Notes: generated by a model not told the origin, from the sequence alone. 64,000 nucleotides of DNA from Verrucomicrobiia bacterium (GCA_035387945.1 DAOOOX010000003.1:10851-74850); one strand, 5' to 3'; positions 11,305 through 34,148 are shown, counted from the first letter of the stretch. Numbers and translations are program-made.

Positions 11305-12744
11305 ATGCTAGGGACGCGCAATGTCGAGGTGCCGTCGCGGGTGGAGACGGCCGTCATCCCGGAGCTTTCCGAGGCTTTGAACGGCCATAGCGCGGATGGC
11401 CCGTCTGGGGAGGTGCGCGTGGCCGCGGTGCCCCCGCCGACGCCGAAGAGGCACACCGAAACCCGTTCAATGAGCGGTACCGGTTCGGCGGTGGGTGCCG
11501 CGCGTCATTCGGTGCGAATCCTGATCGTCGATGACGACAGGAACGAATCGGCCAGTCTCCACTGGGCGTTATCCCAGCGGATATCGATGGAGCTGGTGGG
11601 GGTCGCCCGGGATGGCGCGGAATGCCTGAACCTAGCCCGCCGGCACACGCCCGACGTGGTCTTGCTCAAGGACACCGTCCAGGTGGTGGATTGCCTCAGG
11701 GTCGCCGAGACCCTCGCCGATGAGCTGCCCGAGGTCTCGGTGATCCTCATGACGACCGGATGGATCCGGGTGGACACCCGCTGGAGAGACCTCCTGCACG
11801 CCGGGATCGCGGGGTTCATTACCTACCCCGCCCCTCTGGACAGTCTCCTGGAACAACTCAATCACGTGACCGAACACCAGCATACCCTGCGATCACATAT
11901 CGCGTCAAAATCGGTCCCGACGCAGGAGCCCACGGTTGTCGCTAGCCAGCGCAAGGTCGTGGTCTGCACGGGCCCGAGGGGTGGCTGCGGCCGCAGCCTG
12001 CTGGCGTGCAACCTCGCCGTCTCCCTCGCAACGCGCGATCACTCCGTCTGCCTCGTCGACCTGAACAGCGACGGCGGCGACATCGCCTCCCTGCTGGACA
12101 TCCATCCCCACTACAGCGTCGGCGACCTCGCCCTGGCCGCCGAGGACATCGAGCGCGAGATGATCGGCAACGTCCTGGTCCGCCACTCCACCGGGGTCAA
12201 CATCATCCCGGCGCCCCGCTCTGGCACGCTCCAGAACGACTCCCTCACGCCCTATTTCATTCAGCGGCTCGTGAATTTCACCCGCGAGCAACACGAGTTC
12301 ACCATCGTCGATACCCCGGCCGGCCTAACCGGCTCGGCCCGCTCCATGCTCGACATGACCGACGCGATCGTGGTCATGATCGGATTCGACCTCATACGCC
12401 TCCAGCAGGGCGCCGCCTTCATCGACGAATTAACCCAGGACGGACTGGACCCCGCGCGGATCGTGACCGTCCTGGTCAGCGAGAGCGAACTCCCCCTGAT
12501 CCAGTTGGCGGATGCGGAGCGCATACTCAACTCACCGGTCGCCTGCGTCCTGCCTTTTGACCCCACCACGGCCATCGAGTCCGTCAACAAGGGCGTCCCC
12601 TTCGTCATGACGGCCCCCAACAAGCCGTTGTCCAAGGCGGTGCGCGCGGTCGCCCGGCGCCTCCTGGGCAATCTCCATCCGGCGCCCGCCCCGTGGTGGA
12701 AACGAGTCCTCCACCTGACCCAAAACGACAACGACGGCGCCTGA
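11305..12744 (+). CDS. CpaE/TadZ-like protein: atypical receiver domain fused to a MinD/ParA-type ATPase domain with a deviant, Arg-substituted Walker A
   Basis: REC-like VRILIVDDD...DVVLLKD...VILMTT. ATPase domain with VVVCTGPRGGCGRSLLACNLAVSLA in place of KGGVGKTT, a Walker A' (VDLNSDGGD) and a Walker B (FTIVDTPAG). A GAGGGA RBS lies before the ATG at 11305. Confidence 0.75.
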   Translation: MLGTRNVEVPSRVETAVIPELSEALNGHSADGPSGEVRVAAVPPPTPKRHTETRSMSGTGSAVGAARHSVRILIVDDDRNESASLHWALSQRISMELVGVARDGAECLNLARRHTPDVVLLKDTVQVVDCLRVAETLADELPEVSVILMTTGWIRVDTRWRDLLHAGIAGFITYPAPLDSLLEQLNHVTEHQHTLRSHIASKSVPTQEPTVVASQRKVVVCTGPRGGCGRSLLACNLAVSLATRDHSVCLVDLNSDGGDIASLLDIHPHYSVGDLALAAEDIEREMIGNVLVRHSTGVNIIPAPRSGTLQNDSLTPYFIQRLVNFTREQHEFTIVDTPAGLTGSARSMLDMTDAIVVMIGFDLIRLQQGAAFIDELTQDGLDPARIVTVLVSESELPLIQLADAERILNSPVACVLPFDPTTAIESVNKGVPFVMTAPNKPLSKAVRAVARRLLGNLHPAPAPWWKRVLHLTQNDNDGA

Positions 12745-14778: not shown

Positions 14779-16392
14779 TCACCCGACCGCCGCGAGCACC
14801 GCCTCGACCCGCTTCAATAATTCCGAACCGCTCAATTCCTCGGTCAAGATGTCATCGACAGCGAGGCGCTCCACCTCCTGCTTCTGCCTCAGGGTGAGCA
14901 GGCGGCTGACGACCATGACCCGTTGTTTCGGCAGTCGCTGCCTCATCAGTCGCAGCATGCCCGGCCCCCCTGATCCCGGCCGGTTGATCTCAAGTACCAC
15001 GAGATCGAAATCACCCTCCTGCGCCTTTTCCATCACACCGCTGTTCGGTTCCCCGATGGAAACCTGAAAGCCCGAATCGCGCAGCACGCCCGCCAGCCGC
15101 GGGTTCAACGGTCCCGCGTCTCGCACCAGCAGCACCCTCCGCGCCCCGGCTCCCGCGGCCGATGGCAGCGTCTGGGTCGAGAGTTTCGCCGACAAGGACG
15201 TGCCTTGCGCTCGCACTAGGACTTGCGTCACCTCCTCAGTGAGGATCATCACCCAGAGCGCCCGCCCCCCCACGACGCCCGGCACCGGCAACACCTCGGC
15301 GCGCAATCGTCGCGTGCCCCCGCCCTCCTTGGGCTCCTCCCGATGGAACATGGACGGCTGCCTGGATTTCCAGTCCAGATCGACATCCGTCGCAGAAAAC
15401 CACAGGGGTTCGCCCATCTGGTCTCCCCGCTTCCGGCCTGTGAGCAACTCGAAGCCAGGATTTGCAAAGACCACCGTGGGCTCGCTTTTCTCCGGGGTTT
15501 GCTCCAGGAGCAACAGCCCCTCCGGCAGGGCCGAGCCCACCGCCTCACACAAACGCATCGGCAGGCGTTGCGCCTCACCGAACTCCACCCTCAGCGCCCG
15601 CAGTTCGCTCCGCGCCTTGTCCAACGCCTCGGCCATCGCGCCATCCGTCGATGCCCGCGCCTCGGATGCCTTGGTCTTCTCGTGCAAATCCGCGAGCGCA
15701 GTCCGGAGATCTTCCACCTCCTTTTCGAGCAGTGCCGCGCGCCCCGCTCTCACCAAGAGATCCGACCCGCGCTTTGTTTCCGCCGAAAGATCCCCCAGGG
15801 CCTTCTCGAGCCGCCTCCTGACGTCTTCCAAGTTGCGGTCCAAATCGGTCGACCGGGCAGCCTCCTCCTTCAACTCGGCCCTCGCCCGCACAAGATCTTC
15901 GGCCAACCGTCCCCTCTCCCGCTCCGCCTCTGCCGCGGCCGCCGCGGCATCCGAGGCGTTCTTCTTGAGCCCGTCCAACTCCGCCTTCGCCGCAGCGGCC
16001 GCGCTCTCGGCGCGCGCAAGCTGCGCCCGTAGCCCGCCTTCGGCCCCGATGATGGCAAGTCGAACCCCAAGATCTACCCGGGCAATCGGAGACGCCAGAA
16101 CCTCGTTCGCCCCGGCCCGGAGGTACTCCACCGCGCCCGGCTTGCCGGCCTCAGGCAAAACGGCCATCATGCGAGCTTCCGCCAGCCGATGCCGCGCCCT
16201 GAGCCACCCCGCAAATTGTGTCAATGCTTCGGGCGCATCAGTCCGCATCAAAATCACATCGGGCCGCCCACGATTGGCCGCCAACCTCTCCTCGCCCAAT
16301 GCGCAGGACTCCACGCCATGCCCCATCTCGCTGAGCCAGCCGCCCACCAACGCGGCGGTAGGACCGTCAAGACCCACCAGTAAGATCTTCAT
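14779..16392 (-). CDS. signalling protein: N-terminal pseudo-receiver, ~150-aa coiled coil, PAS-like domain, C-terminal receiver (REC-CC-PAS-REC)
   Basis: MKILLVGLDG...DVILM (degenerate REC); Ala/Glu/Arg/Leu heptad-rich region; C-terminal REC (RVLLVRDAG...DLVVLEINRPG...VMVVS...AVDDILTE). Confidence 0.75.
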   Translation of the reverse strand: MKILLVGLDGPTAALVGGWLSEMGHGVESCALGEERLAANRGRPDVILMRTDAPEALTQFAGWLRARHRLAEARMMAVLPEAGKPGAVEYLRAGANEVLASPIARVDLGVRLAIIGAEGGLRAQLARAESAAAAAKAELDGLKKNASDAAAAAAEAERERGRLAEDLVRARAELKEEAARSTDLDRNLEDVRRRLEKALGDLSAETKRGSDLLVRAGRAALLEKEVEDLRTALADLHEKTKASEARASTDGAMAEALDKARSELRALRVEFGEAQRLPMRLCEAVGSALPEGLLLLEQTPEKSEPTVVFANPGFELLTGRKRGDQMGEPLWFSATDVDLDWKSRQPSMFHREEPKEGGGTRRLRAEVLPVPGVVGGRALWVMILTEEVTQVLVRAQGTSLSAKLSTQTLPSAAGAGARRVLLVRDAGPLNPRLAGVLRDSGFQVSIGEPNSGVMEKAQEGDFDLVVLEINRPGSGGPGMLRLMRQRLPKQRVMVVSRLLTLRQKQEVERLAVDDILTEELSGSELLKRVEAVLAAVG

Positions 16393-23403: not shown

Positions 23404-25939
<2,536 letters not shown>

Positions 25940-25947
<8 letters not shown>

Positions 25948-27094
25948 CCTTTTTGCTCTGCTTGCCTCGGTCCGCCGGACCATCGGGGGGCTCCACGACC
26001 TTCCCCGCATCCGGTTTGCCAAGGCCCTTAAGTCTTTCACGGATCAGGTCAGCGCGCAACCCGTCCCGATCCTCCGTCGAAAGTTTCTTTTCCTCCTTGG
26101 CCTGGAGGTGGGCCGGCTGCATCCAGATCATCAATTCGTCCACCGTCTTTCTCAGCTCCTCCGCCATCATCTCCAGCTCGATGCCCAGCCGAATGACGGA
26201 CAGAAGATTCATCGCCTCCTTGGAGGCGATCGAATAGGTGTTGGTCAGGATGCCGTACGCCCGGCCCACATTGTCCGCCACCATCCGCGGCTTGCGCTCC
26301 ATCAGCGATGCCCGCGCGTTCTGCTCGTGCTCGACGATCTGCCGGATCACCTTGCCCAGCCGCGCCATGATCTCGGCCTCGGATTCGCCCAGCGTCATCT
26401 GGTTGGACACCTGAAAGAGGTTCCCCAGCGCCTCGGTCCCCTCTCCGTAGAGGCCCCTGACCGCGAGGCCCAGCTTGCCCACCGCCTGCACGATCTGATT
26501 GATCTGCTCGCCGAGCACGAGCCCCGGCAGATGCAGCATCGCGGAGGCCCGCATCCCCGTGCCCACGTTCGTCGGGCACGCCGTCAGGTACCCAAAATCC
26601 GAGGAGTATGCGAACGGGATCACTCGCTCCAGCGCATCGTCCATCCCCGTCACCGTCTCCCAGACCGATCCGAGGTCGAACCCCGCAGCAAACGCCTGGA
26701 TCCGCAGATGGTCCTCCTCGTTGACCAGTATGCTCACGCCCCGATCACCGCTTATCGCCACCCCGCTTCCGGGGCCCTTCGCCGCATGCTCCCGGCTCAC
26801 GAGATGCTGCTCCACAAGGAGTTGCTTCTCAATCATGGAGAAGCTCTCCATCCCTTCGATCACCAGCGGTTCCCGCATCGCCGGCAGCGCCCGCACCGGT
26901 GGCATCACCGTCTCGTACACTCTCTGGCGCTCGGCCTTGTCCCCCCAGGTGGGGAACGCGTGCCCCTCCAGGTTGCGCGCCAGGCGCAGCCTGCTGCTCA
27001 TCACCACGCTGGACTCCCCGGATGCCGTGCACATCCAGTCCGGCGTGGAGCCGATCAATCTCGATACGATCATCGCCTTAACTATAGGTTTCAT
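25940..27094 (-). CDS. mcsB: protein-arginine kinase McsB (ATP:guanido phosphotransferase family)
   Basis: Phosphagen-kinase core with CPTNVGTGMRAS, EEDHLRIQ, and LGESEAEIMARL. The 3' end overlaps the clpC start (ATGAATAA). An alternative start lies at 27142. Confidence 0.85.
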
Positions 27095-27171
27095 CCCACC
27101 CCTTTCAAGATCACACGCGCATGCGGATTTCCGGTTGAACATGGCCGCCGCCTCCGCAGAATGCCCCCCTC

Positions 27172-27957
27172 ATGAAATTTGTGGCGGTGGCCAATCAGAA
27201 GGGCGGCGTGGGCAAAACCACCACGGCCGTCAACCTCGCCTCCTGCCTCGCAGAGCGCGGACTGCGGATACTGGTGGTCGACATGGACCCCCAGGCCTCC
27301 GCCACCAGCTCCCTCGGCGTCGCCAAAGAACCCGGGCGCAGCATCTATGGTCCCTTCATCGGCCGCGGCACCGCCCGCGACTGCATCCGCCCCACGCCCT
27401 ACGAGAACCTTGCCCTGATCCCCTCCGAGCAGGATCTCGCGGGCATCGAAAACGAGTTCGCCCACATGGAGGATGGCGCCATCCGCCTCCGATCCGTCCT
27501 CGGCGCCCTCCGCGATATCTGCAATTTCAACTTCATCATCATCGACTGCCCCCCCTCCATCGGCGCCATCATGGTCAACGCCCTCGCGGCCTCCGATTCC
27601 ATCCTCGTGCCGCTTCAGTGCGAATACCTCTCATTGGAGGGCCTCACCCAGATCCTCTCCGTCATCGACCGAATCCGCAACGGCCTCAACCCCGCCCTCC
27701 AGATTGAGGGCGTGCTCATGACGATGTTCGACGCCCGCACCCGACTCGCACAGAATGTCGTCAATGACGTCCGAGCCCACCTCGGTGACCAGGTCTTTGC
27801 CACTGTCATCCCAAGAACCGTCCGCCTTGGCGAGGCCCCGTCCTTCGGCCAACCCATCAATCACTACGACAAATTCAGCGCCGGCACCGCCGCCTATCGC
27901 GCCCTCGCCCTCGAGTTCCTCTCCCGCAACGGCACCAACCCGCCCACCGTGACCTGA
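27172..27957 (+). CDS. parA: ParA/Soj-family partition ATPase (orphan; no parB adjacent)
   Basis: Deviant Walker A NQKGGVGKTTTAVNLA, DMDPQASAT, and Walker B FIIIDCPPS; 261 aa. Confidence 0.9.
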   Translation: MKFVAVANQKGGVGKTTTAVNLASCLAERGLRILVVDMDPQASATSSLGVAKEPGRSIYGPFIGRGTARDCIRPTPYENLALIPSEQDLAGIENEFAHMEDGAIRLRSVLGALRDICNFNFIIIDCPPSIGAIMVNALAASDSILVPLQCEYLSLEGLTQILSVIDRIRNGLNPALQIEGVLMTMFDARTRLAQNVVNDVRAHLGDQVFATVIPRTVRLGEAPSFGQPINHYDKFSAGTAAYRALALEFLSRNGTNPPTVT

Positions 27958-28154
27958 TGCCCACTCTCCCGAATCCTCCCGACAACAACGCCCCCCGTAA
28001 CGCTGTCACCCCACTCTAAGATCCCACGGGCATCAGATTTATTGATCAATCCGTGCTCGGGAGCGTGCCTTTTGGTTTCGCCGACAGTTTTTTTCACAAA
28101 AACGCGACATTCTTCTTGCGCGTTAAGAAGTTGTTCTCATATCGTCCGGATTCG

Positions 28155-29588
28155 ATGACAACTTTCACTTATTCCATTTATCCCTCTGCAAAATCTGATT
28201 ACTCGTCTCATCAGTCCGTTGGCCTCATCCTCGCGTTCACCCTGATCGCGAGCTGCGCCTGGGCCGGCGAAATCGTTTCCGATCGCGTCAAGGAGTTGGA
28301 AAAACTCATCGAGGATCAGGGCATCTACCTCGAGACCGCGAAAACCGGTGTCAAACTCGGTGGCTGGGTGAACGCGAGCTACGCGTATAATCTCAATGGC
28401 GGCGCGACCGACACCGGCATCAACGGCACGCCGATCCCCACCGCGGTGGACATCGAGGACTCCAACGATTTCTCCGTCAATTCCGTCCGAATAATCCTGG
28501 AGAAAGCGCTTCCCGAGGAGAATACGTGGGCCGCGGGATTTCGCGTCGACATGGTCTTCGGCGAAGACCAGAAGTGGGGATTCGACAATGAGCCCGGCAT
28601 GGGTGACGGCTCGTCCGCGCTGGCGCTCGAATTCGCGTACGTCACCTTCCGCGCGCCGGTCGGCAACGGCCTCGATTTCCAGTTTGGCAAGTGGCAGGCG
28701 CTCCTCGGCTACGAGTACACCGACCGGGTGCAGAATGATAATTTCAGCGCCGGTCTTCTCGCGTGGTTCCTGGAACCCGCCACCCACACGGGCGTCCTGA
28801 TGACCTATCCCCTCTCCCAGAGGGTCACGGTCAACCTCGGCATTGCCAACGGCTGGAATAACTCCGACAGCAACTTCTTCGACAACAATGTCAATGGCAA
28901 CGGCGATGACGGCCCCTCCGACTGGGCCAAGCTCGTCACCGGCAGCATCGATATCACGAGCCCGGGCGAGAACGCAGAACTCATCATCGGCGCCGCCTAC
29001 TCTTTCGAGGGCGAGGGCTACTTCGGGAACGTATCCAACGGCACGTTCGACGGCAGCGACACCACCGTGGAGAACGCCGGTTTCCTCGCGCTCAACATGA
29101 ACGCTTCGTGGCGGCCAAAGTGCGCCTCGGACAAGCTGCAGTTCGCCATCAACGCCGACCTGCTCAAGGGATTCGATAACCTCCACCGCACCGCGGGCAA
29201 CCCGCCCTACGACCGCGACGAGAACGCCGCCATGGCCTGGGGCGCCGGCATCTACGCGAAATATCAGCTCACCGACTTCCTCTACCTCGCCACCCGGGCC
29301 GAATACATGCACGCCGACGACGGCACCCTCGGGTTCGCCGACGGCCTGGTCCCCGACGGACCGTCCGCCTCGATCGACCGCAACAATGTCTACGTCAGCA
29401 ACACCGACCTCTGGTCCTACACGCTCACCGCCGGCTTCGACCTCTGCGATGCCATGCGCCTCCGCCTCGAGTACCGGCTCGACGCCGCGTCCAGCGACGG
29501 CGGCCACGACGGCGAGGCCAATATCTTCGATAACAACCAAAGCACCCAGCACTCTTTCTCCCTCGATGTCTCATACATATTCTGGTGA
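28155..29588 (+). CDS. outer-membrane beta-barrel porin-like protein
   Basis: Signal peptide (LILAFTLIASCAWAGE); alternating amphipathic beta-strands rich in G/N/Y/F; C-terminal aromatic residue (SLDVSYIFW). The ORF could start as early as 28053. Confidence 0.6.
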   Translation: MTTFTYSIYPSAKSDYSSHQSVGLILAFTLIASCAWAGEIVSDRVKELEKLIEDQGIYLETAKTGVKLGGWVNASYAYNLNGGATDTGINGTPIPTAVDIEDSNDFSVNSVRIILEKALPEENTWAAGFRVDMVFGEDQKWGFDNEPGMGDGSSALALEFAYVTFRAPVGNGLDFQFGKWQALLGYEYTDRVQNDNFSAGLLAWFLEPATHTGVLMTYPLSQRVTVNLGIANGWNNSDSNFFDNNVNGNGDDGPSDWAKLVTGSIDITSPGENAELIIGAAYSFEGEGYFGNVSNGTFDGSDTTVENAGFLALNMNASWRPKCASDKLQFAINADLLKGFDNLHRTAGNPPYDRDENAAMAWGAGIYAKYQLTDFLYLATRAEYMHADDGTLGFADGLVPDGPSASIDRNNVYVSNTDLWSYTLTAGFDLCDAMRLRLEYRLDAASSDGGHDGEANIFDNNQSTQHSFSLDVSYIFW

Positions 29589-29612
29589 CACTCGCGCCGC
29601 CATCGCGGCGCG

Positions 29613-32204
29613 GTGACACCGCCAAAGAAATCACCCCCGATGAAGCTCAGACCGAAAACAGCCCTCATGGTAGCCGGGACCTTTGCCGTCCTGGTCGCCG
29701 CCCTGTACGTCATCCTCTCACGGACGTTCATCCGAAGTTTCGACGAACTCGAAAGGACGCAGGCCACCGACTCCGTCGGCCGCCTCCAGAGGGCCGTGAA
29801 AGAAAACCTCAACGCCATGCTCGTCCAGTTGACCGACTGGTCGAACTGGGACGATTCCTATCTCTACATCCAGGGCAAGAAGCCCGACTTTGACGCCGCC
29901 AACCTGACCCAGGAGATCCTCGAGAACTCGAGTCTCTCGTTCATGGTCTACGTGGATCTCAAAGGCAAGATCATGCGGGTCCACCACCCCGAGGGCCAGC
30001 CGACCCCAGAATCCTTCCTCAAGCTGGTCCTCCCCGGCTCCAAATTCATCCAGCACGAGGGCGTCGGCCCGCCGCCCTGGCCGACCGGCACGACGCCGCG
30101 AATCGGGGGCTTCGTCGACCTCGGTCCCGACGGCGCCTACCTCGTGGGCGCACAGGCCATGACGGACGCAAAGGCCTCCGTTCAGCCCATGGGCACACTG
30201 ATTTTCGCGAGGAAAATCGACGCCAAGTTGCTCGCCCGATTCTCCGAGATCATGCTGTCCGAAGTAACCTGTGAGTTCCTCTCCTCATCCGCCCTCCCGC
30301 CCAACTTCAAGGAGGCCGCCGACGCCCTGGCCAACGAGACCGCCACGCATGTCGAGATGATCGACGAGCAGAAAATGGCCGGCTACTGCCGCTTCGACGA
30401 CCTTGACCACAGGGCGACCGTCATCTTTCGCATGGCGATGCCAAGGGACGTGCACCAGAAGGGCCAGGCCACCCGACGCATCTTCCTGACCAGCCTGGCC
30501 GCCGCCGGCGTCGTCTCCCTCCTCGTGACCCTGCTGCTGCTCGATGCCAACGTCATCAGCCGACTCCGCCGCCTGAGCCAACAGGCCCTCGCCATCGGCC
30601 GCTCCCGCGACTTCTCCGGCCGCGTCGCCACCCGAGGCACCGACGAGCTGGCCGACCTCGGCGGCTCCGTCAACGAGATGCTCGGGGCCCTCCAGGCCGC
30701 CGAGGGATCCGTCCGCGCCGCCGGCGCCGAGATGGAGCGCATCCTCAACACCGTCACCGACGGCCTCTTCCTCATGGACCGGAGACTCGTCATCGGCTCG
30801 AGGTACTCGAAGGCCCTCGAGACCATCTTCATGCGCGCCGACCTCGCCGGCCTGCCGTTCCGCACCCTCATCGAGAGCGCGCTTCCGCCCAAGACCCTCG
30901 AGGCCACCAGCGACTACATGGCCATCCTCTTCGACCCCAATGTCAAAGAGAAGCTCATCCAGACCCTCAATCCCCTCAAGGAGGCAGAATTCAACTTCCC
31001 GGGCGAGGGTGGCCTCTTCGAGACCCGCCACCTGGACTTCCGCTTCCGCCGCGTGATAGACGGCGGCGCCATCGCCGCGGTCATGGCCTCCGTCACCGAC
31101 ATCACCCGCAGCGTCGCCCTGGCCCGCGACCTCAAGGCCGCCGAGGAGCGCACCAACAGGCAGCTCGAGATGATGCTCAGCATCCTCCACGTCGACATGG
31201 GCATGGTCCGCGAGTTCCTCGCGGGCACCCGTGAGGAACTCACCGTCATCGATGCCATCCTCCGCGAGTCCGTGCCGCAGACCTCCGACGAGAACGCGAT
31301 CTCGGGCCACTACCGCGATCGCCTCCGCCGCATCCAGCGCCTCATGCACGCGATCAAGGGCAATGCCGCACTGCTCAAGCTGCGCTTCTTCGAGAATTCC
31401 GCGCACCTCATCGAGACCCGCCTCAAGAAGCTCGCCGAAAAGACCGCCATCGGCGGCCAGGACTTCCTCGGCATCACCCTGGAACTCGCCACCCTCCACG
31501 ACCACCTGGCCGAGGCCAACGGGGTCATCGGACGCCTCACCGACGCCCGCGCCCCGCGCAACGGATCCACCCCTGGCGTCCCAAGCGCGACCACCCACCC
31601 CATCGTCACCTCCATCGATTCCCTGATCGGCGAACTCGCCCAGCGCACCGGAAAACGCGCCGTCCTCCGCCCCGAGAACTTCGATCCCGAACAGATCCCC
31701 TTCCGGTCCAGGAAGACCGTCACCGACATGCTGGTCCAGCTCACCCGCAATTCCATGCGCCATGGGATCGAGGACCCGGACCTGCGCCTCCAACGCAACA
31801 AGCCCGCCGACGGCCGCATCGACTTGTGGACGTGCTCGGACGAGGACTACTTCATCTTCGGCTTTCGTGATGACGGCAACGGCCTCGACCCAGAACGTCT
31901 CAAGACCACCGCCGCCAGGCTGGGCATCGCATCTCGCGAGCAAACGCGCCACTGGAGCCGCGAGCAGGTCTACCAGCTCATTTTCCACCCCGGCTTCACG
32001 ACCGCCCAGGATGCCACCACCGAGGGCGGCATGGGCGTCGGTCTCGACCTCGTCTGCGACCGCATCAGCGAGCTGAATGGCTCCATCCTCGTCGAATCCG
32101 AGCCCGAATACTATTGCCAGTTCTGGATCTGGATCCCCAAGAAGGAGAGCCTGGTCGCGCGATCCAACCGCATCGATTCCACCCTAACCCCGGCGTACGC
32201 GTGA
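29613..32204 (+). CDS. transmembrane CheA-like histidine kinase: TM-CHASE4-like periplasmic domain-TM-HAMP-PAS-HPt-vestigial P3-HATPase_c (P4); no P5/CheW-like domain
   Basis: TM1 ALMVAGTFAVLVAALYVIL; periplasmic WSNWDDSYLYIQG (CHASE4-like); TM2 IFLTSLAAAGVVSLLVTLLLL; HAMP; PAS-like; HPt with LMHAIKGNAALLKL; CheA P4 signatures MLVQLTRNSMRHGIE, FGFRDDGNGLD, LIFHPGFTTAQDATTEGGMGVGLDLV. The protein ends ~25 aa after P4. Confidence 0.8.
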   Translation: MTPPKKSPPMKLRPKTALMVAGTFAVLVAALYVILSRTFIRSFDELERTQATDSVGRLQRAVKENLNAMLVQLTDWSNWDDSYLYIQGKKPDFDAANLTQEILENSSLSFMVYVDLKGKIMRVHHPEGQPTPESFLKLVLPGSKFIQHEGVGPPPWPTGTTPRIGGFVDLGPDGAYLVGAQAMTDAKASVQPMGTLIFARKIDAKLLARFSEIMLSEVTCEFLSSSALPPNFKEAADALANETATHVEMIDEQKMAGYCRFDDLDHRATVIFRMAMPRDVHQKGQATRRIFLTSLAAAGVVSLLVTLLLLDANVISRLRRLSQQALAIGRSRDFSGRVATRGTDELADLGGSVNEMLGALQAAEGSVRAAGAEMERILNTVTDGLFLMDRRLVIGSRYSKALETIFMRADLAGLPFRTLIESALPPKTLEATSDYMAILFDPNVKEKLIQTLNPLKEAEFNFPGEGGLFETRHLDFRFRRVIDGGAIAAVMASVTDITRSVALARDLKAAEERTNRQLEMMLSILHVDMGMVREFLAGTREELTVIDAILRESVPQTSDENAISGHYRDRLRRIQRLMHAIKGNAALLKLRFFENSAHLIETRLKKLAEKTAIGGQDFLGITLELATLHDHLAEANGVIGRLTDARAPRNGSTPGVPSATTHPIVTSIDSLIGELAQRTGKRAVLRPENFDPEQIPFRSRKTVTDMLVQLTRNSMRHGIEDPDLRLQRNKPADGRIDLWTCSDEDYFIFGFRDDGNGLDPERLKTTAARLGIASREQTRHWSREQVYQLIFHPGFTTAQDATTEGGMGVGLDLVCDRISELNGSILVESEPEYYCQFWIWIPKKESLVARSNRIDSTLTPAYA

Positions 32205-32566
32205 AACTGCTTATCGTAGACGATTCGAGTGTTGTCCGGCGAGCCATCCAGCGCCACATCGACGACGGCCGCGTGAGCGAGATCATCGAGGCCAGGAATG
32301 GCGTCGAGGCGGTCACGATGTTCACGGTGCATCGCCCCGACTTGGTCACGATGGACATCACCATGCCGGAGATGGATGGCATCCGCGCCGTAGAGGAACT
32401 CGTCAAGCTCCGCCCCGACGTCCGCATCCTCATCGTCTCCGCGATGGCCGACAAGCACACCGCCATCCAGGCCGTTCGCAAGGGGGCCAAGGGGTTCCTC
32501 CTGAAGCCATTCAACTCCGTGGAACTCAACGAGGCCCTCGAAGAGATCTTGACCGACGGAATCTGA
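32201..32566 (+). CDS. cheY: CheY-like single-domain response regulator
   Basis: VKLLIVDDSSVVRR...DLVTMDITMPEMDG...ILIVSAM...KGAKGFLLKPF. The GTG start at 32201 overlaps the kinase TGA (gcGTGAaa), indicating translational coupling. The ORF track shows a longer form from 32114. Confidence 0.8.
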   Translation: MKLLIVDDSSVVRRAIQRHIDDGRVSEIIEARNGVEAVTMFTVHRPDLVTMDITMPEMDGIRAVEELVKLRPDVRILIVSAMADKHTAIQAVRKGAKGFLLKPFNSVELNEALEEILTDGI

Positions 32567-32582
32567 CCGGAGCCAGACCTAC

Positions 32583-33032
32583 ATGAACGAGGGTGAAATC
32601 CAGGCTTTTGTCGACATCACCGTCAATTACTTCAACCAGATCGGCGGCGAGCCCGCGCGCGTGGAGCCCCCCTACATGCGCAAGGAGGGCGATTCGCCCA
32701 TCCACGACTTCACCGGCGTCATCGGCATCTCCGGCTCAAGGAAGGGCGCCATCTACTTCACCGCCACGTCCAACCTGCTCACGAACGTGCTCGAGGCCCA
32801 CGGTGAAACCCAGATCAGCCAACCCATGCTGGCCGACATGGTCGGCGAAATCGCTAACACGATCTCGGGCAATGCCCGATTCTACTTCGGGCACGAGTTC
32901 ATGATCTCCGTGCCTGTCGTCCTCCTGGGACGCCCGAGCGACATCCGGCTACCGGAGAACATCCGCAGCTTCGTGATCCCCATCTCGTGGCACGGGTCCA
33001 AGGCACACCTCCTGGTCTGCCTGGAGAACTGA
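32583..33032 (+). CDS. cheX: CheX/CheC-family chemotaxis phosphatase
   Basis: 149 aa; DITVNYFNQIGGEP...DFTGVIGISGSRKGAIYF...MLADMVGEIANTISGNA matches the CheX fold signature. It lies 16 nt after cheY. Confidence 0.75.
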   Translation: MNEGEIQAFVDITVNYFNQIGGEPARVEPPYMRKEGDSPIHDFTGVIGISGSRKGAIYFTATSNLLTNVLEAHGETQISQPMLADMVGEIANTISGNARFYFGHEFMISVPVVLLGRPSDIRLPENIRSFVIPISWHGSKAHLLVCLEN

Positions 33033-33038
33033 CCCCGA

Positions 33039-33395
33039 TCAGGCCCGGAATTCGAGGAATTCCACCGGCGCACCGCCGTCGTCGATAAAGGCCACCCAGA
33101 CCCCCGGAAGCGGCTCGAATGGCTCGACGATGACCTTCCTCCCGCGGATCGCGGCCTTCAGATCGTCCACCTTGAAACCCACGTGCGGCACCGTCTTGAC
33201 CAGCGGGTGCATCGGGCTGCCCGGCTCGAACCGCAGCCACTCGATCCCGTGCTCCTGCTTGCTGGCATCCGTGATCCAGATCTTCATCGACTGCAGATAG
33301 ATTTCATTCTCGTGCTTCGCCGCCGTCGGAATCCCGATGTGATGGTACGTCCTCGTCATGACCCCCATTGTCCCCGGCCCACCCCGAGTGGTCAA
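33039..33395 (-). CDS. VOC/glyoxalase-family small protein
   Basis: YHHIGIPT...VAFIDDGGAPVEFLEF pattern of a glyoxalase/bleomycin-resistance fold. The probable start is MTRTYHH at ~33359. Confidence 0.6.
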   Translation of the reverse strand: MTTRGGPGTMGVMTRTYHHIGIPTAAKHENEIYLQSMKIWITDASKQEHGIEWLRFEPGSPMHPLVKTVPHVGFKVDDLKAAIRGRKVIVEPFEPLPGVWVAFIDDGGAPVEFLEFRA

Positions 33396-33419
33396 CTCGG
33401 GATGGTGCGGGTCCGGCCG

Positions 33420-34148
33420 TCATCGCAGATGATCGCCGAGCCGCACCACCCGTGCCCCGGGTGCAGCCCGCGACACAACGGCCCGCCCGAGGTTCACCCA
33501 TCGCCCGCATCGGTCCAGGATCGCGCTGTCCGCCGTCGCCGCGACCGCCTCGCCCTTGGCCAAGACGGCGTCCGGATCGACCACCAGTTCCACCCGCCAC
33601 GGCCATTGCCGGGCCGCCGCGGTCTCTCGCAGCAGGCACGCCAGTTTTCCGCTGTTGGAGACCGGCCGATCCAGCAGCCAGTGGATGTCTCGCGCCCCCG
33701 TCGCCTCTAGCACGCGACCGATCCATTCCACGGCAGACGCAGTCTCTTCCACCCAATGAAACCGCCCGCCCATGCTCGCCATATCCCGGTAGCAGCCGTC
33801 GCGACCCTCGAGCAACACCCCCCCAGCCAGCGCCGCCTCCACCGTCGTCAGCACATTGTACCCATCCACCTGCACCGCGGCGCCGGCAAGATCCCCGATC
33901 GCCACCTCGTGCCCCCGGCGCGAGGCCATCGCATCATCGGAACACGCGCATCGCATGACGGCCGCCCGCTGCCGGTCCGTGAGCGCATATCGATCCCCGA
34001 CCAGCTTCACCGAGGACGTCTGCGCGTACCCCCGCGAGTACAGCCAGCACAGATCCGCCACCGCCTCGCGCAATACGCGTACCGCCTCCGGCGCGAACGC
34101 CCGCGCATCGTCCGGGTGCGGGCCCCGGTGCCGTCGCCTGTCGGGCAT
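33420..34148 (-). CDS. DUF434-like plus NYN/PIN-like domain protein (predicted RNA-binding or nuclease)
   Basis: LCWLYSRGYAQTSSVKLVGDRYALTDRQR resembles DUF434; VDGYNVLTTVEAAL resembles the YacP/NYN DGYNV motif. Low-confidence family call. Confidence 0.45.
   Translation of the reverse strand: MPDRRRHRGPHPDDARAFAPEAVRVLREAVADLCWLYSRGYAQTSSVKLVGDRYALTDRQRAAVMRCACSDDAMASRRGHEVAIGDLAGAAVQVDGYNVLTTVEAALAGGVLLEGRDGCYRDMASMGGRFHWVEETASAVEWIGRVLEATGARDIHWLLDRPVSNSGKLACLLRETAAARQWPWRVELVVDPDAVLAKGEAVAATADSAILDRCGRWVNLGRAVVSRAAPGARVVRLGDHLR

Follow-up and report, generated by a model that had tools for sequence, protein, structure and literature searches.

A class III-type sensor kinase with CheA-like catalytic domains, a CHASE4–HAMP–PAS input and predicted CheY and CheX partners in a Verrucomicrobiia bacterium

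Introduction

The chemotaxis kinase CheA (HKII) is delimited by four invariable core domains, with the dimerisation and CheW domains present in 100% of cases, and has no input domain (Berry et al. 2023, PMC10782961). Here we describe a sensor kinase gene from a Verrucomicrobiia bacterium whose product shares its catalytic domains with CheA, carries its own membrane-spanning sensor and is encoded next to cheY and cheX. The gene lies in a stretch of 64,000 nucleotides (GCA_035387945.1, DAOOOX010000003.1:10851-74850; 64% GC), referred to as the window, which is all of the DNA that was visible and on which all coordinates are counted. In all likelihood the operon that contains the kinase gene specifies every component of a class III-type phosphorelay that is independent of a chemoreceptor array.

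Class III histidine kinases (HKIII) are reportedly composed of sensory domains and a CheA-like kinase that has no dimerisation domain and no CheW. Their partners are said to be a single-domain regulator and CheX, often with an unorthodox soluble chemoreceptor nearby, and the class reportedly also occurs in genomes without chemotaxis genes and has a ‘narrow phyletic distribution’. HKIII genes are further said to be found always alongside pilT, and on this ground type IV pilus motility has been proposed as their role. The label ‘class III histidine kinases’ is also used for an unrelated fungal class.

Comparison with CheA and class III histidine kinases

The window kinase resembles CheA in that its HPt domain is homologous to P1, its ATPase is homologous to P4 and present in single copy, and it is predicted to signal to a CheY from which a phosphatase of the CheC/CheX family removes the phosphoryl group. 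It differs from CheA in having neither the dimerisation nor the CheW domain, two of the four invariable CheA domains, and in having its own sensor (two transmembrane segments, TM1 and TM2, around CHASE4, followed by HAMP), where CheA by definition has none; the criteria of Berry et al. 2023 therefore exclude it from CheA.

The kinase and its family match HKIII as outlined above, a class that is the subject of Adebali et al. 2017 (J Bacteriol 199:e00218-17), which is cited and paraphrased in PMC6501615. The likeness consists in sensors that lie N-terminal to Hpt and a CheA-like HATPase_c domain, the lack of a dimerisation domain and CheW, and a gene position beside a single-domain response regulator and CheX, which is shared by 76 of 89 related copies. 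The differences are the input, which is a two-pass membrane CHASE4 and HAMP module unseen in the 60 other members sampled, the Verrucomicrobiae host together with a family spread far wider than the reported ‘narrow phyletic distribution’, the BBP2 porin gene that is co-conserved upstream in the clade of the window kinase, and the lack of a soluble methyl-accepting chemotaxis protein (MCP) nearby, as judged by Pfam in the window and by clustering, not an MCP profile, in 83 related loci. As to the HKIII feature pilT, Pfam finds none in the 64-kb window. An array-free CheA-type kinase is not a new design, and the window kinase is one member of a large family whose class was described in 2017. The CHASE4–HAMP membrane input, the porin linkage and the wider phyletic spread may go beyond that description, and so may PAS as a core domain.

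A CheA-type catalytic core

From the N-terminus to the C-terminus the kinase consists of TM1, CHASE4, TM2, HAMP, PAS, HPt, a 16-residue linker and a CheA-type P4, after which it stops (Table 1; residues are numbered in the 863-residue version of a preliminary description of this locus, counted from a GTG at 29613). The predicted phospho-acceptor of the HPt domain, His579 (codon CAC at 31347-31349), lies in the motif MHAIKGNA, and its H-x-x-K-G signature is conserved in the 65-sequence family alignment in which the residues of the kinase were counted (His579 in 64/65, Lys582 in 65/65 and the glycine in 64/65). Pfam recognises Hpt at residues 531-609 with 26.0 bits against a cutoff of 24.6, which is marginal for the window kinase taken alone. 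At the level of the family the HPt-like segment passes the profile test: Hpt is found in 54 of 60 relatives, and positions 169-242 of a hidden Markov model (HMM) of the family core align to residues 4-76 of genuine CheAs, which correspond to P1 and include H-x-x-K-G, with independent E-values of 1e-8 to 1e-17. Positions ~270-471 of the model align to CheA residues ~331-524 (P4), and the spacing between the P1 and P4 blocks is ~34 model positions in the family versus ~255 residues in CheA. A protein was counted as a genuine CheA if Pfam recognised Hpt, H-kinase_dim, HATPase_c and CheW in it.

The ATPase is recognised by Pfam as HATPase_c at residues 706-844 (E 1.2e-12). The N, G1, F and G2 boxes of P4 are intact, and N713, H717, E720, D754, G755, G808 and G810 are invariant in 65/65 sequences. 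When the PDB is searched by phmmer with the kinase, only CheA P4 domains match (1i58, E 8.5e-19, query residues 672-841), and the NCBIfam model CheA_Halo scores 123.7 bits over residues 702-836, with class I kinases at ~25 bits. Foldseek superimposes the modelled ATPase on CheA P4 (1i5c, 8pf2 and related entries) with TM-scores of 0.8-0.86 and a root-mean-square deviation (rmsd) of 2.2-3.2 Å at ~25% identity. With a phospho-histidine motif and ATP-binding boxes that are invariant or nearly so in the 65 members, the kinase is predicted to be catalytically competent, and the CheA-type HPt and P4 named in the preliminary description are upheld by Pfam, the family HMM, phmmer and Foldseek alike.

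The structure predictions are single-chain AlphaFold2 (AF2) models. The model of residues 363-863, computed from the 65-sequence family alignment, has a mean predicted local distance difference test (pLDDT) score of 91.1 and begins with a linker helix and an α/β domain of five strands. A long helix comes next, followed by a bundle of four helices, the second of which carries His579; after 16 residues of low confidence (the linker, with pLDDT <50 at core residues 292-296), an α/β ATPase domain completes the model.

P3 and P5/CheW, by which CheA is joined to itself and to receptors, are both absent from the kinase, and so is P2. Pfam finds no H-kinase_dim (PF02895) in it and the model contains no helical hairpin between HPt and P4, so that the earlier statement of a P3 ‘reduced to ~15 aa’ is correct in that no full P3 is found by profile or structure, but P3 is absent and not shortened. 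The reported lack of P5 is confirmed, with no CheW/P5 (PF01584) detected by Pfam in the kinase and none seen in the structure; the protein ends 21 residues after P4, whereas CheA continues for >300 residues.

The same data bear on whether the protein might instead be a class I sensor histidine kinase of the usual kind, in which the helices would be a diverged DHp hairpin and the likeness to CheA superficial. The class I kinases FixL, WalK/VicK and the engineered YF1 share with the window kinase a sensor and HAMP/PAS joined by helices to a phospho-acceptor bundle and an ATPase, the nearest structural neighbours of the window PAS are dimeric FixL PAS domains, and the order of PAS, helices and ATPase, the long but poor Foldseek alignments to YF1, VicK and ThkA (rmsd 21-27 Å) and the marginal Pfam Hpt score are all compatible with such a kinase. 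We nevertheless hold it to be highly improbable, as Pfam finds no HisKA-family match in the window kinase and the histidine helix aligns specifically to CheA P1 with H-x-x-K-G. The phospho-acceptor is modelled as a monomeric four-helix HPt bundle on a flexible, disordered tether, not as a DHp hairpin joined to the ATPase; the ATPase is of the CheA lineage and matches CheA P4 only, both in the PDB and in NCBIfam (124 versus ~25 bits); and the partners are CheY and CheX, with no DNA-binding regulator.

The sensor half and the PAS domain

The transmembrane CHASE4–HAMP–PAS input that had been described for the kinase is confirmed by Pfam matches to CHASE4 and HAMP, by two hydrophobic segments that flank CHASE4 and, for PAS, by AF2 and Foldseek. 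CHASE4 is the most variable region of the kinase in an alignment of close relatives, and in the census of 60 family members this input is confined to the small Verrucomicrobiales clade of the window kinase itself. Pfam detects no PAS domain in the window kinase. The AF2 model of residues 363-506 has a pLDDT of 93.9, and the top 50 Foldseek matches of the modelled region in the PDB are PAS domains in 50 of 50 cases (FixL, DosP, LOV and WalK-PAS), with dimeric FixL first; the PAS assignment of the preliminary description was right because all of these best matches are PAS domains.

The role of PAS as the kinase’s own sensor has to be revised. An HMM of the PAS block, built from five close-clade sequences only, finds the block in 134 of 149 family representatives that had been picked on HPt–P4 similarity alone, and the conserved core of the family would therefore be PAS–HPt–tether–P4. 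PAS, although missed by Pfam, thus seems to belong to the family core and not to be a private input. Twelve of the 149 representatives have a late core match; they are short (281-405 residues), start inside the core and are probably gene fragments.

Family size and conservation

An exhaustive HMMER search against 1.84 billion representatives, with the region from HPt to the C-terminus (residues 500-863) as query, returned 525 cluster representatives at E<=1e-30. By comparison, a word-indexed homologue search with the whole protein found four full-length relatives only and badly underestimated the size of the family. The best 150 of the 525 representatives are all collinear with the query over its whole length, HPt–linker–P4, with between 0 and ~1,200 residues N-terminal to the core. 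On the C-terminal side the termination point is the same in 149 of 149 representatives, with 0-25 residues (median 4) after the core.

A Pfam domain census of 60 of the family representatives found HATPase_c in 60/60, and CheW and H-kinase_dim in none of them. The N-terminal sensors are diverse and include PilJ (12), Reg_prop/Y_Y_Y (10-11), GAF (5), PAS (4-5), HAMP (3) and dCache (2), as well as an ammonium transporter and 7TMR-DISM. These comparisons argue that the array-free HPt–tether–P4 design is under selection and not accidental.

Conservation also bears on whether the gene might be a decaying remnant of a chemotaxis operon, that is, a non-functional CheA that lost its 3′ end and became fused to a sensor gene. 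Rubritalea and Persicirhabdus, cultured verrucomicrobial hosts of the family, are described as non-motile, which would suit such a remnant. The cytoplasmic half is, however, 70-84% identical among members of the close clade with invariant catalytic residues, the end point is the same throughout the 149 representatives, the genes are translationally coupled, and the open reading frame (ORF) has a strong coding signal (third-position GC of 0.89) that is typical of genes in the window. The remnant explanation is effectively refuted by the conservation data, and we give it next to no weight.

CheY, CheX and gene neighbourhoods

Downstream of the kinase, the GTG start of cheY at 32201 overlaps the kinase TGA as GTGA, and cheX begins 16 nucleotides after cheY and is the last gene of the block. 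This arrangement agrees with what had been described, and both products are recognised by Pfam (Response_reg and CheX). The equivalent CheY proteins of relatives are also 121 residues long. The predicted phospho-acceptor is Asp52. Of 88 linked homologues, 83-88 retain each of D7, D8, D52, S/T80, F/Y99 and K102, with S80 and F99 in the window CheY. In CheX the active-site motif is D85-x3-E89-x2-N92, which reads D/E-x3-E-x2-N across linked homologues (glutamate in 94/94, asparagine in 79/94). The active-site motif of CheC/CheX/FliY phosphatases is reportedly D/S-x3-E-x2-N (Park et al. 2004).

The linkage of the kinase to both partners is conserved, and so passes a test that the preliminary description had set. 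Over 89 kinase copies, cheY and cheX both adjoin the kinase on the same strand in 76, and four of the 13 exceptions lie at contig ends. Kinase-linked cheY–cheX pairs occur in Verrucomicrobiota, Eremiobacterota, Calditrichota, Gamma-, Beta- and Alphaproteobacteria and Spirochaetes. Species genomes of GTDB were scanned with two peptide patterns, based on 10 sequences, and 80 loci were returned. Those of Verrucomicrobiota belong to Verrucomicrobiales, Opitutaceae, Akkermansiaceae, Chthoniobacterales, Rubritalea and Persicirhabdus, and the others to Eremiobacterota, Calditrichota, Steroidobacteraceae and other Gammaproteobacteria, Uliginosibacterium, Alphaproteobacteria and spirochaetes. The two patterns favour the subfamily of the window kinase, and the phyletic list is a lower bound because the loci are biased accordingly.

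The commonest gene order is kinase–cheY–cheX, followed by kinase–cheY–cheX–cheX (~14 loci) and cheY–cheX–kinase (six loci, mostly of spirochaetes). Tandem cheX genes are found in loci L032, L040-L042, L045-L047, L050, L051, L054 and L080 and in other Opitutaceae and Akkermansiaceae, and downstream of such pairs lie two conserved same-strand genes whose products have no meaningful Pfam match (L034:4836-6110 and L054:8682-9551). The inverted order is that of the spirochaete loci L057, L067, L068, L074 and L077. Loci L012 and L018 (Eremiobacterota), L027 (Calditrichota), L051 (Verrucomicrobia) and L009 each encode two family kinases no more than a few kilobases apart; those of L027 are in tandem and have no adjacent cheY or cheX.

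When neighbouring ORFs were clustered over 83 loci, no neighbour beyond cheY and cheX was common to the whole family, with only clade-specific synteny, and no recurrent MCP-like, CheW or PilT neighbour was seen among the clusters, which were made without an MCP profile. Within the window, a Pfam scan of ~45 proteins detected no MCPsignal, CheW, CheR, CheB or PilT, in agreement with the preliminary description, which had noted the lack of MCP, CheW, CheR and CheB genes in the window. Its characterisation of an array-independent, one-protein receptor-kinase is supported by the anatomy of the protein and by this lack of array genes in the window; to call the system a version of a chemotaxis pathway exceeds the data.

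These neighbourhoods also allow us to weigh whether the protein is one half of a split (bipartite) CheA, with P1 and P4 encoded here and a P3–P5 protein encoded elsewhere that docks to an MCP/CheW array, like CheA3/CheA4 of Cereibacter sphaeroides. In favour of such an arrangement, a soluble MCP is said to lie near many HKIII genes, and the visible 64 kb belong to a contig of at least 267 kb, elsewhere on which array genes could lie. Bipartite CheAs are known (Berry et al. 2023, PMC10782961), but both C. sphaeroides halves keep CheW (PMC10782961), against 0/60 members of the family studied here. In addition, an MCP would duplicate the transmembrane sensor and HAMP that the kinase already has, and no CheW, MCP or P3–P5 gene is present in the window or recurs beside the 89 related kinases. 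We therefore regard a split CheA as improbable and favour the array-independent phosphorelay.

The porin gene and operon structure

In the close clade the conserved unit starts one gene before the kinase, at a BBP2 porin gene that the preliminary description had overlooked. On the plus strand the order is bbp2 porin, kinase, cheY and cheX, and the 3′ neighbour is convergent from the minus strand. In the window and in the related loci L001-L005 the porin gene is the immediate 5′ neighbour of the kinase gene and has the same orientation, with different genes further upstream; the linkage thus holds in 6/6 loci of the close clade and is missing from the other 78 related loci. The block of porin, kinase, 121-residue REC protein and CheX is intact in three relatives, in which the flanking genes differ. 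The porin probably starts at the ATG at 28155, from which its N-terminus resembles a signal peptide, and 51 nucleotides separate the porin gene from the kinase ATG. From this arrangement the porin, kinase, cheY and cheX genes very probably form a single four-gene operon.

The kinase ORF itself (29613-32204, plus strand) is real, with a corrected start. The four close relatives (62-78% full-length identity) all start at a methionine equivalent to the ATG at 29640, from which the protein reads MKLR..., and the exact 854-residue product is deposited as NCBI HPA16640.1, ‘CHASE4 domain-containing protein [Verrucomicrobiae bacterium]’. The kinase gene is therefore 29640-32204, and the GTG at 29613 that was originally given adds nine unsupported codons.

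In 24 gammaproteobacterial loci the gene immediately 5′ of the kinase gene, in the same orientation, encodes a protein of ~700 residues with a C-terminal TonB_C domain (Pfam E 1e-20) (L011, L013, L014, L016 and 20 more; representative L078:1801-3897, plus strand). The TonB_C protein and the BBP2 porin suggest a recurrent coupling of family kinases to proteins of the cell envelope.

Table 1. Features of the porin–kinase–cheY–cheX block. Positions are those of the window; residue numbers within the kinase follow the 863-residue version.
Feature	Residues	Position	Strand	Basis
BBP2/OmpL-like outer-membrane β-barrel porin gene		28053..29588	+	Pfam BBP2, E 2.5e-42
Class III-type sensor histidine kinase, 854 aa		29640..32204	+	Starts of relatives, exact NCBI match
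TM1 (TALMVAGTFAVLVAALYVILS)	16-36	29658..29720	+	Kyte-Doolittle peak 2.5
Periplasmic CHASE4 sensor domain	62-219	29796..30269	+	Pfam CHASE4, E 1e-23
TM2 (IFLTSLAAAGVVSLLVTLLLL)	290-310	30480..30542	+	Kyte-Doolittle peak 2.4
HAMP domain	314-362	30552..30698	+	Pfam HAMP, E 1.5e-8
PAS domain (flanking helices 364-380 and 498-525)	384-496	30762..31100	+	AF2, Foldseek
HPt four-helix bundle, homologous to CheA P1	529-646	31197..31550	+	Pfam, family HMM, AF2
Flexible Pro/Gly linker of 16 residues (APRNGSTPGVPSATTH), where CheA has P2 and P3	647-662	31551..31598	+	AF2
CheA-type P4 ATP-binding kinase domain	663-842	31599..32138	+	phmmer, Foldseek, NCBIfam
cheY-like single-domain response regulator, 121 aa		32201..32566	+	Pfam Response_reg, E 6.9e-28
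cheX, putative phosphatase of phosphorylated CheY, 149 aa		32583..33032	+	Pfam CheX, E 1.3e-18

Proposed signalling mechanism

In the mechanism that we propose, a ligand in the periplasm, which may enter through the outer-membrane porin encoded in the operon, would alter the CHASE4/TM/HAMP dimer, and by way of TM2 and the HAMP dimer the change would reach the conserved PAS domain and the helices on either side of it. PAS and these helices would probably supply the dimer contact that P3 gives in CheA, and would govern how readily the tethered P4 reaches His579 on HPt and hence phosphorylates it. The phosphoryl group would then pass from His579 to Asp52 of the single-domain CheY, and CheX would quickly strip it from phosphorylated CheY (CheY-P). 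As a result of this quick dephosphorylation, the signal would keep pace with the level of the ligand in real time, with no adaptation by methylation. None of the four genes of the block encodes the target of CheY-P.

Several points weigh against the array-independent phosphorelay as outlined. The Hpt score of the window kinase is marginal, just 1.4 bits over the Pfam cutoff, and the HKIII match draws on a reported definition and on one secondary citation. Scans of positions 27000-33600 for promoters and terminators gave counts no higher than those in shuffled sequence, and because they did no better than chance the operon structure stands on spacing and synteny alone. HAMP/PAS dimerisation, phosphorylation in cis or in trans and the role of the porin are inferred steps, and the models are of single chains. 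MCP, CheW, flagellar or pilus genes may be present elsewhere in the genome, of which the 64-kb window is the visible part, and we know of no biochemistry for the window kinase or any other member of the class.

More tentatively, PAS, which accompanies HPt–P4 in nearly all complete members of the family, could be the defining regulatory and dimerisation element of the whole class, doing the jobs of P3 and of P5/CheW and the receptor, with the clade of the window kinase adding an envelope-spanning pathway of porin, CHASE4 and kinase whose output is non-flagellar; we regard this extended proposal as possible but doubtful. If the PAS reading is true, class III kinases gate a CheA-type ATPase by a structural route of their own.

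Implications

What had seemed a unique ‘array-free CheA’ is one of a very large class of signalling proteins that extends across several phyla, and the class shows one design by which control of a CheA-type ATPase is possible in the absence of receptor arrays. To our knowledge no structure of the class has been solved. The locus is a tidy candidate for experiments, with a defined periplasmic sensor, a well-modelled soluble core (pLDDT 91) and cognate CheY and CheX, and it offers two new leads in the conserved PAS domain and the linkage to envelope proteins (the porin here and the TonB_C protein in gammaproteobacteria).

For annotation, a protein that has HPt and a CheA-like ATPase without CheW should be neither called CheA nor counted as a chemotaxis system. 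Counts of chemotaxis systems that are based on CheA annotation may be inflated because family members are named inconsistently, some of them as CheA. Names found in databases include ‘chemotaxis sensor kinase CheA’, ‘signal transduction histidine kinase’, ‘HPt domain-containing protein’, ‘CHASE4 domain-containing protein’ and ‘ATP-binding protein’.

Other genes of the window

The window also encodes housekeeping proteins (XseA, RpoD, DnaG, SerS, ThiC, NadA, PanE, ClpC and McsB) and proteins of polysaccharide degradation (a sulfatase, a heparinase, arabinofuranosidases and PSCyt2/PSD1/DUF1501). Two sets of genes had been put forward speculatively as output partners of the kinase, and neither is retained. 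The ParA gene (27172-27957) lies upstream of the porin only in the window and is linked in 0/3 relatives examined, which have a GHMP kinase or unrelated genes at this place. The genes for REC proteins at 11305-12744 and 14779-16392 lie >13 kb away behind housekeeping genes, with those for an amidase, NadA, PanE, ClpC, McsB and others intervening, and show no tie to the module.

The first of these REC proteins (11305-12744, plus strand; 479 residues) combines an N-terminal receiver with a ParA/MinD-type ATPase, an architecture like that of the pilus-assembly proteins CpaE/TadZ, and no other pilus genes were recognised near it. The second (14779-16392, minus strand; 537 residues) has a receiver at its C-terminus only, and its N-terminal ~420 residues have no Pfam match. 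On the other side of the block, genes for a DUF434/DUF5616 protein (33420-34148, minus strand) and for a 118-residue protein without a Pfam match (33039-33395, minus strand) converge on the end of cheX; a DUF5616 gene is also found downstream in the relative L001, not in L002. Finally, a ClpC-type ATPase (878 residues) and an McsB-like ATP:guanido phosphotransferase (protein arginine kinase) are encoded next to each other at 23404-27142 on the minus strand, a pairing that is best known from Firmicutes.

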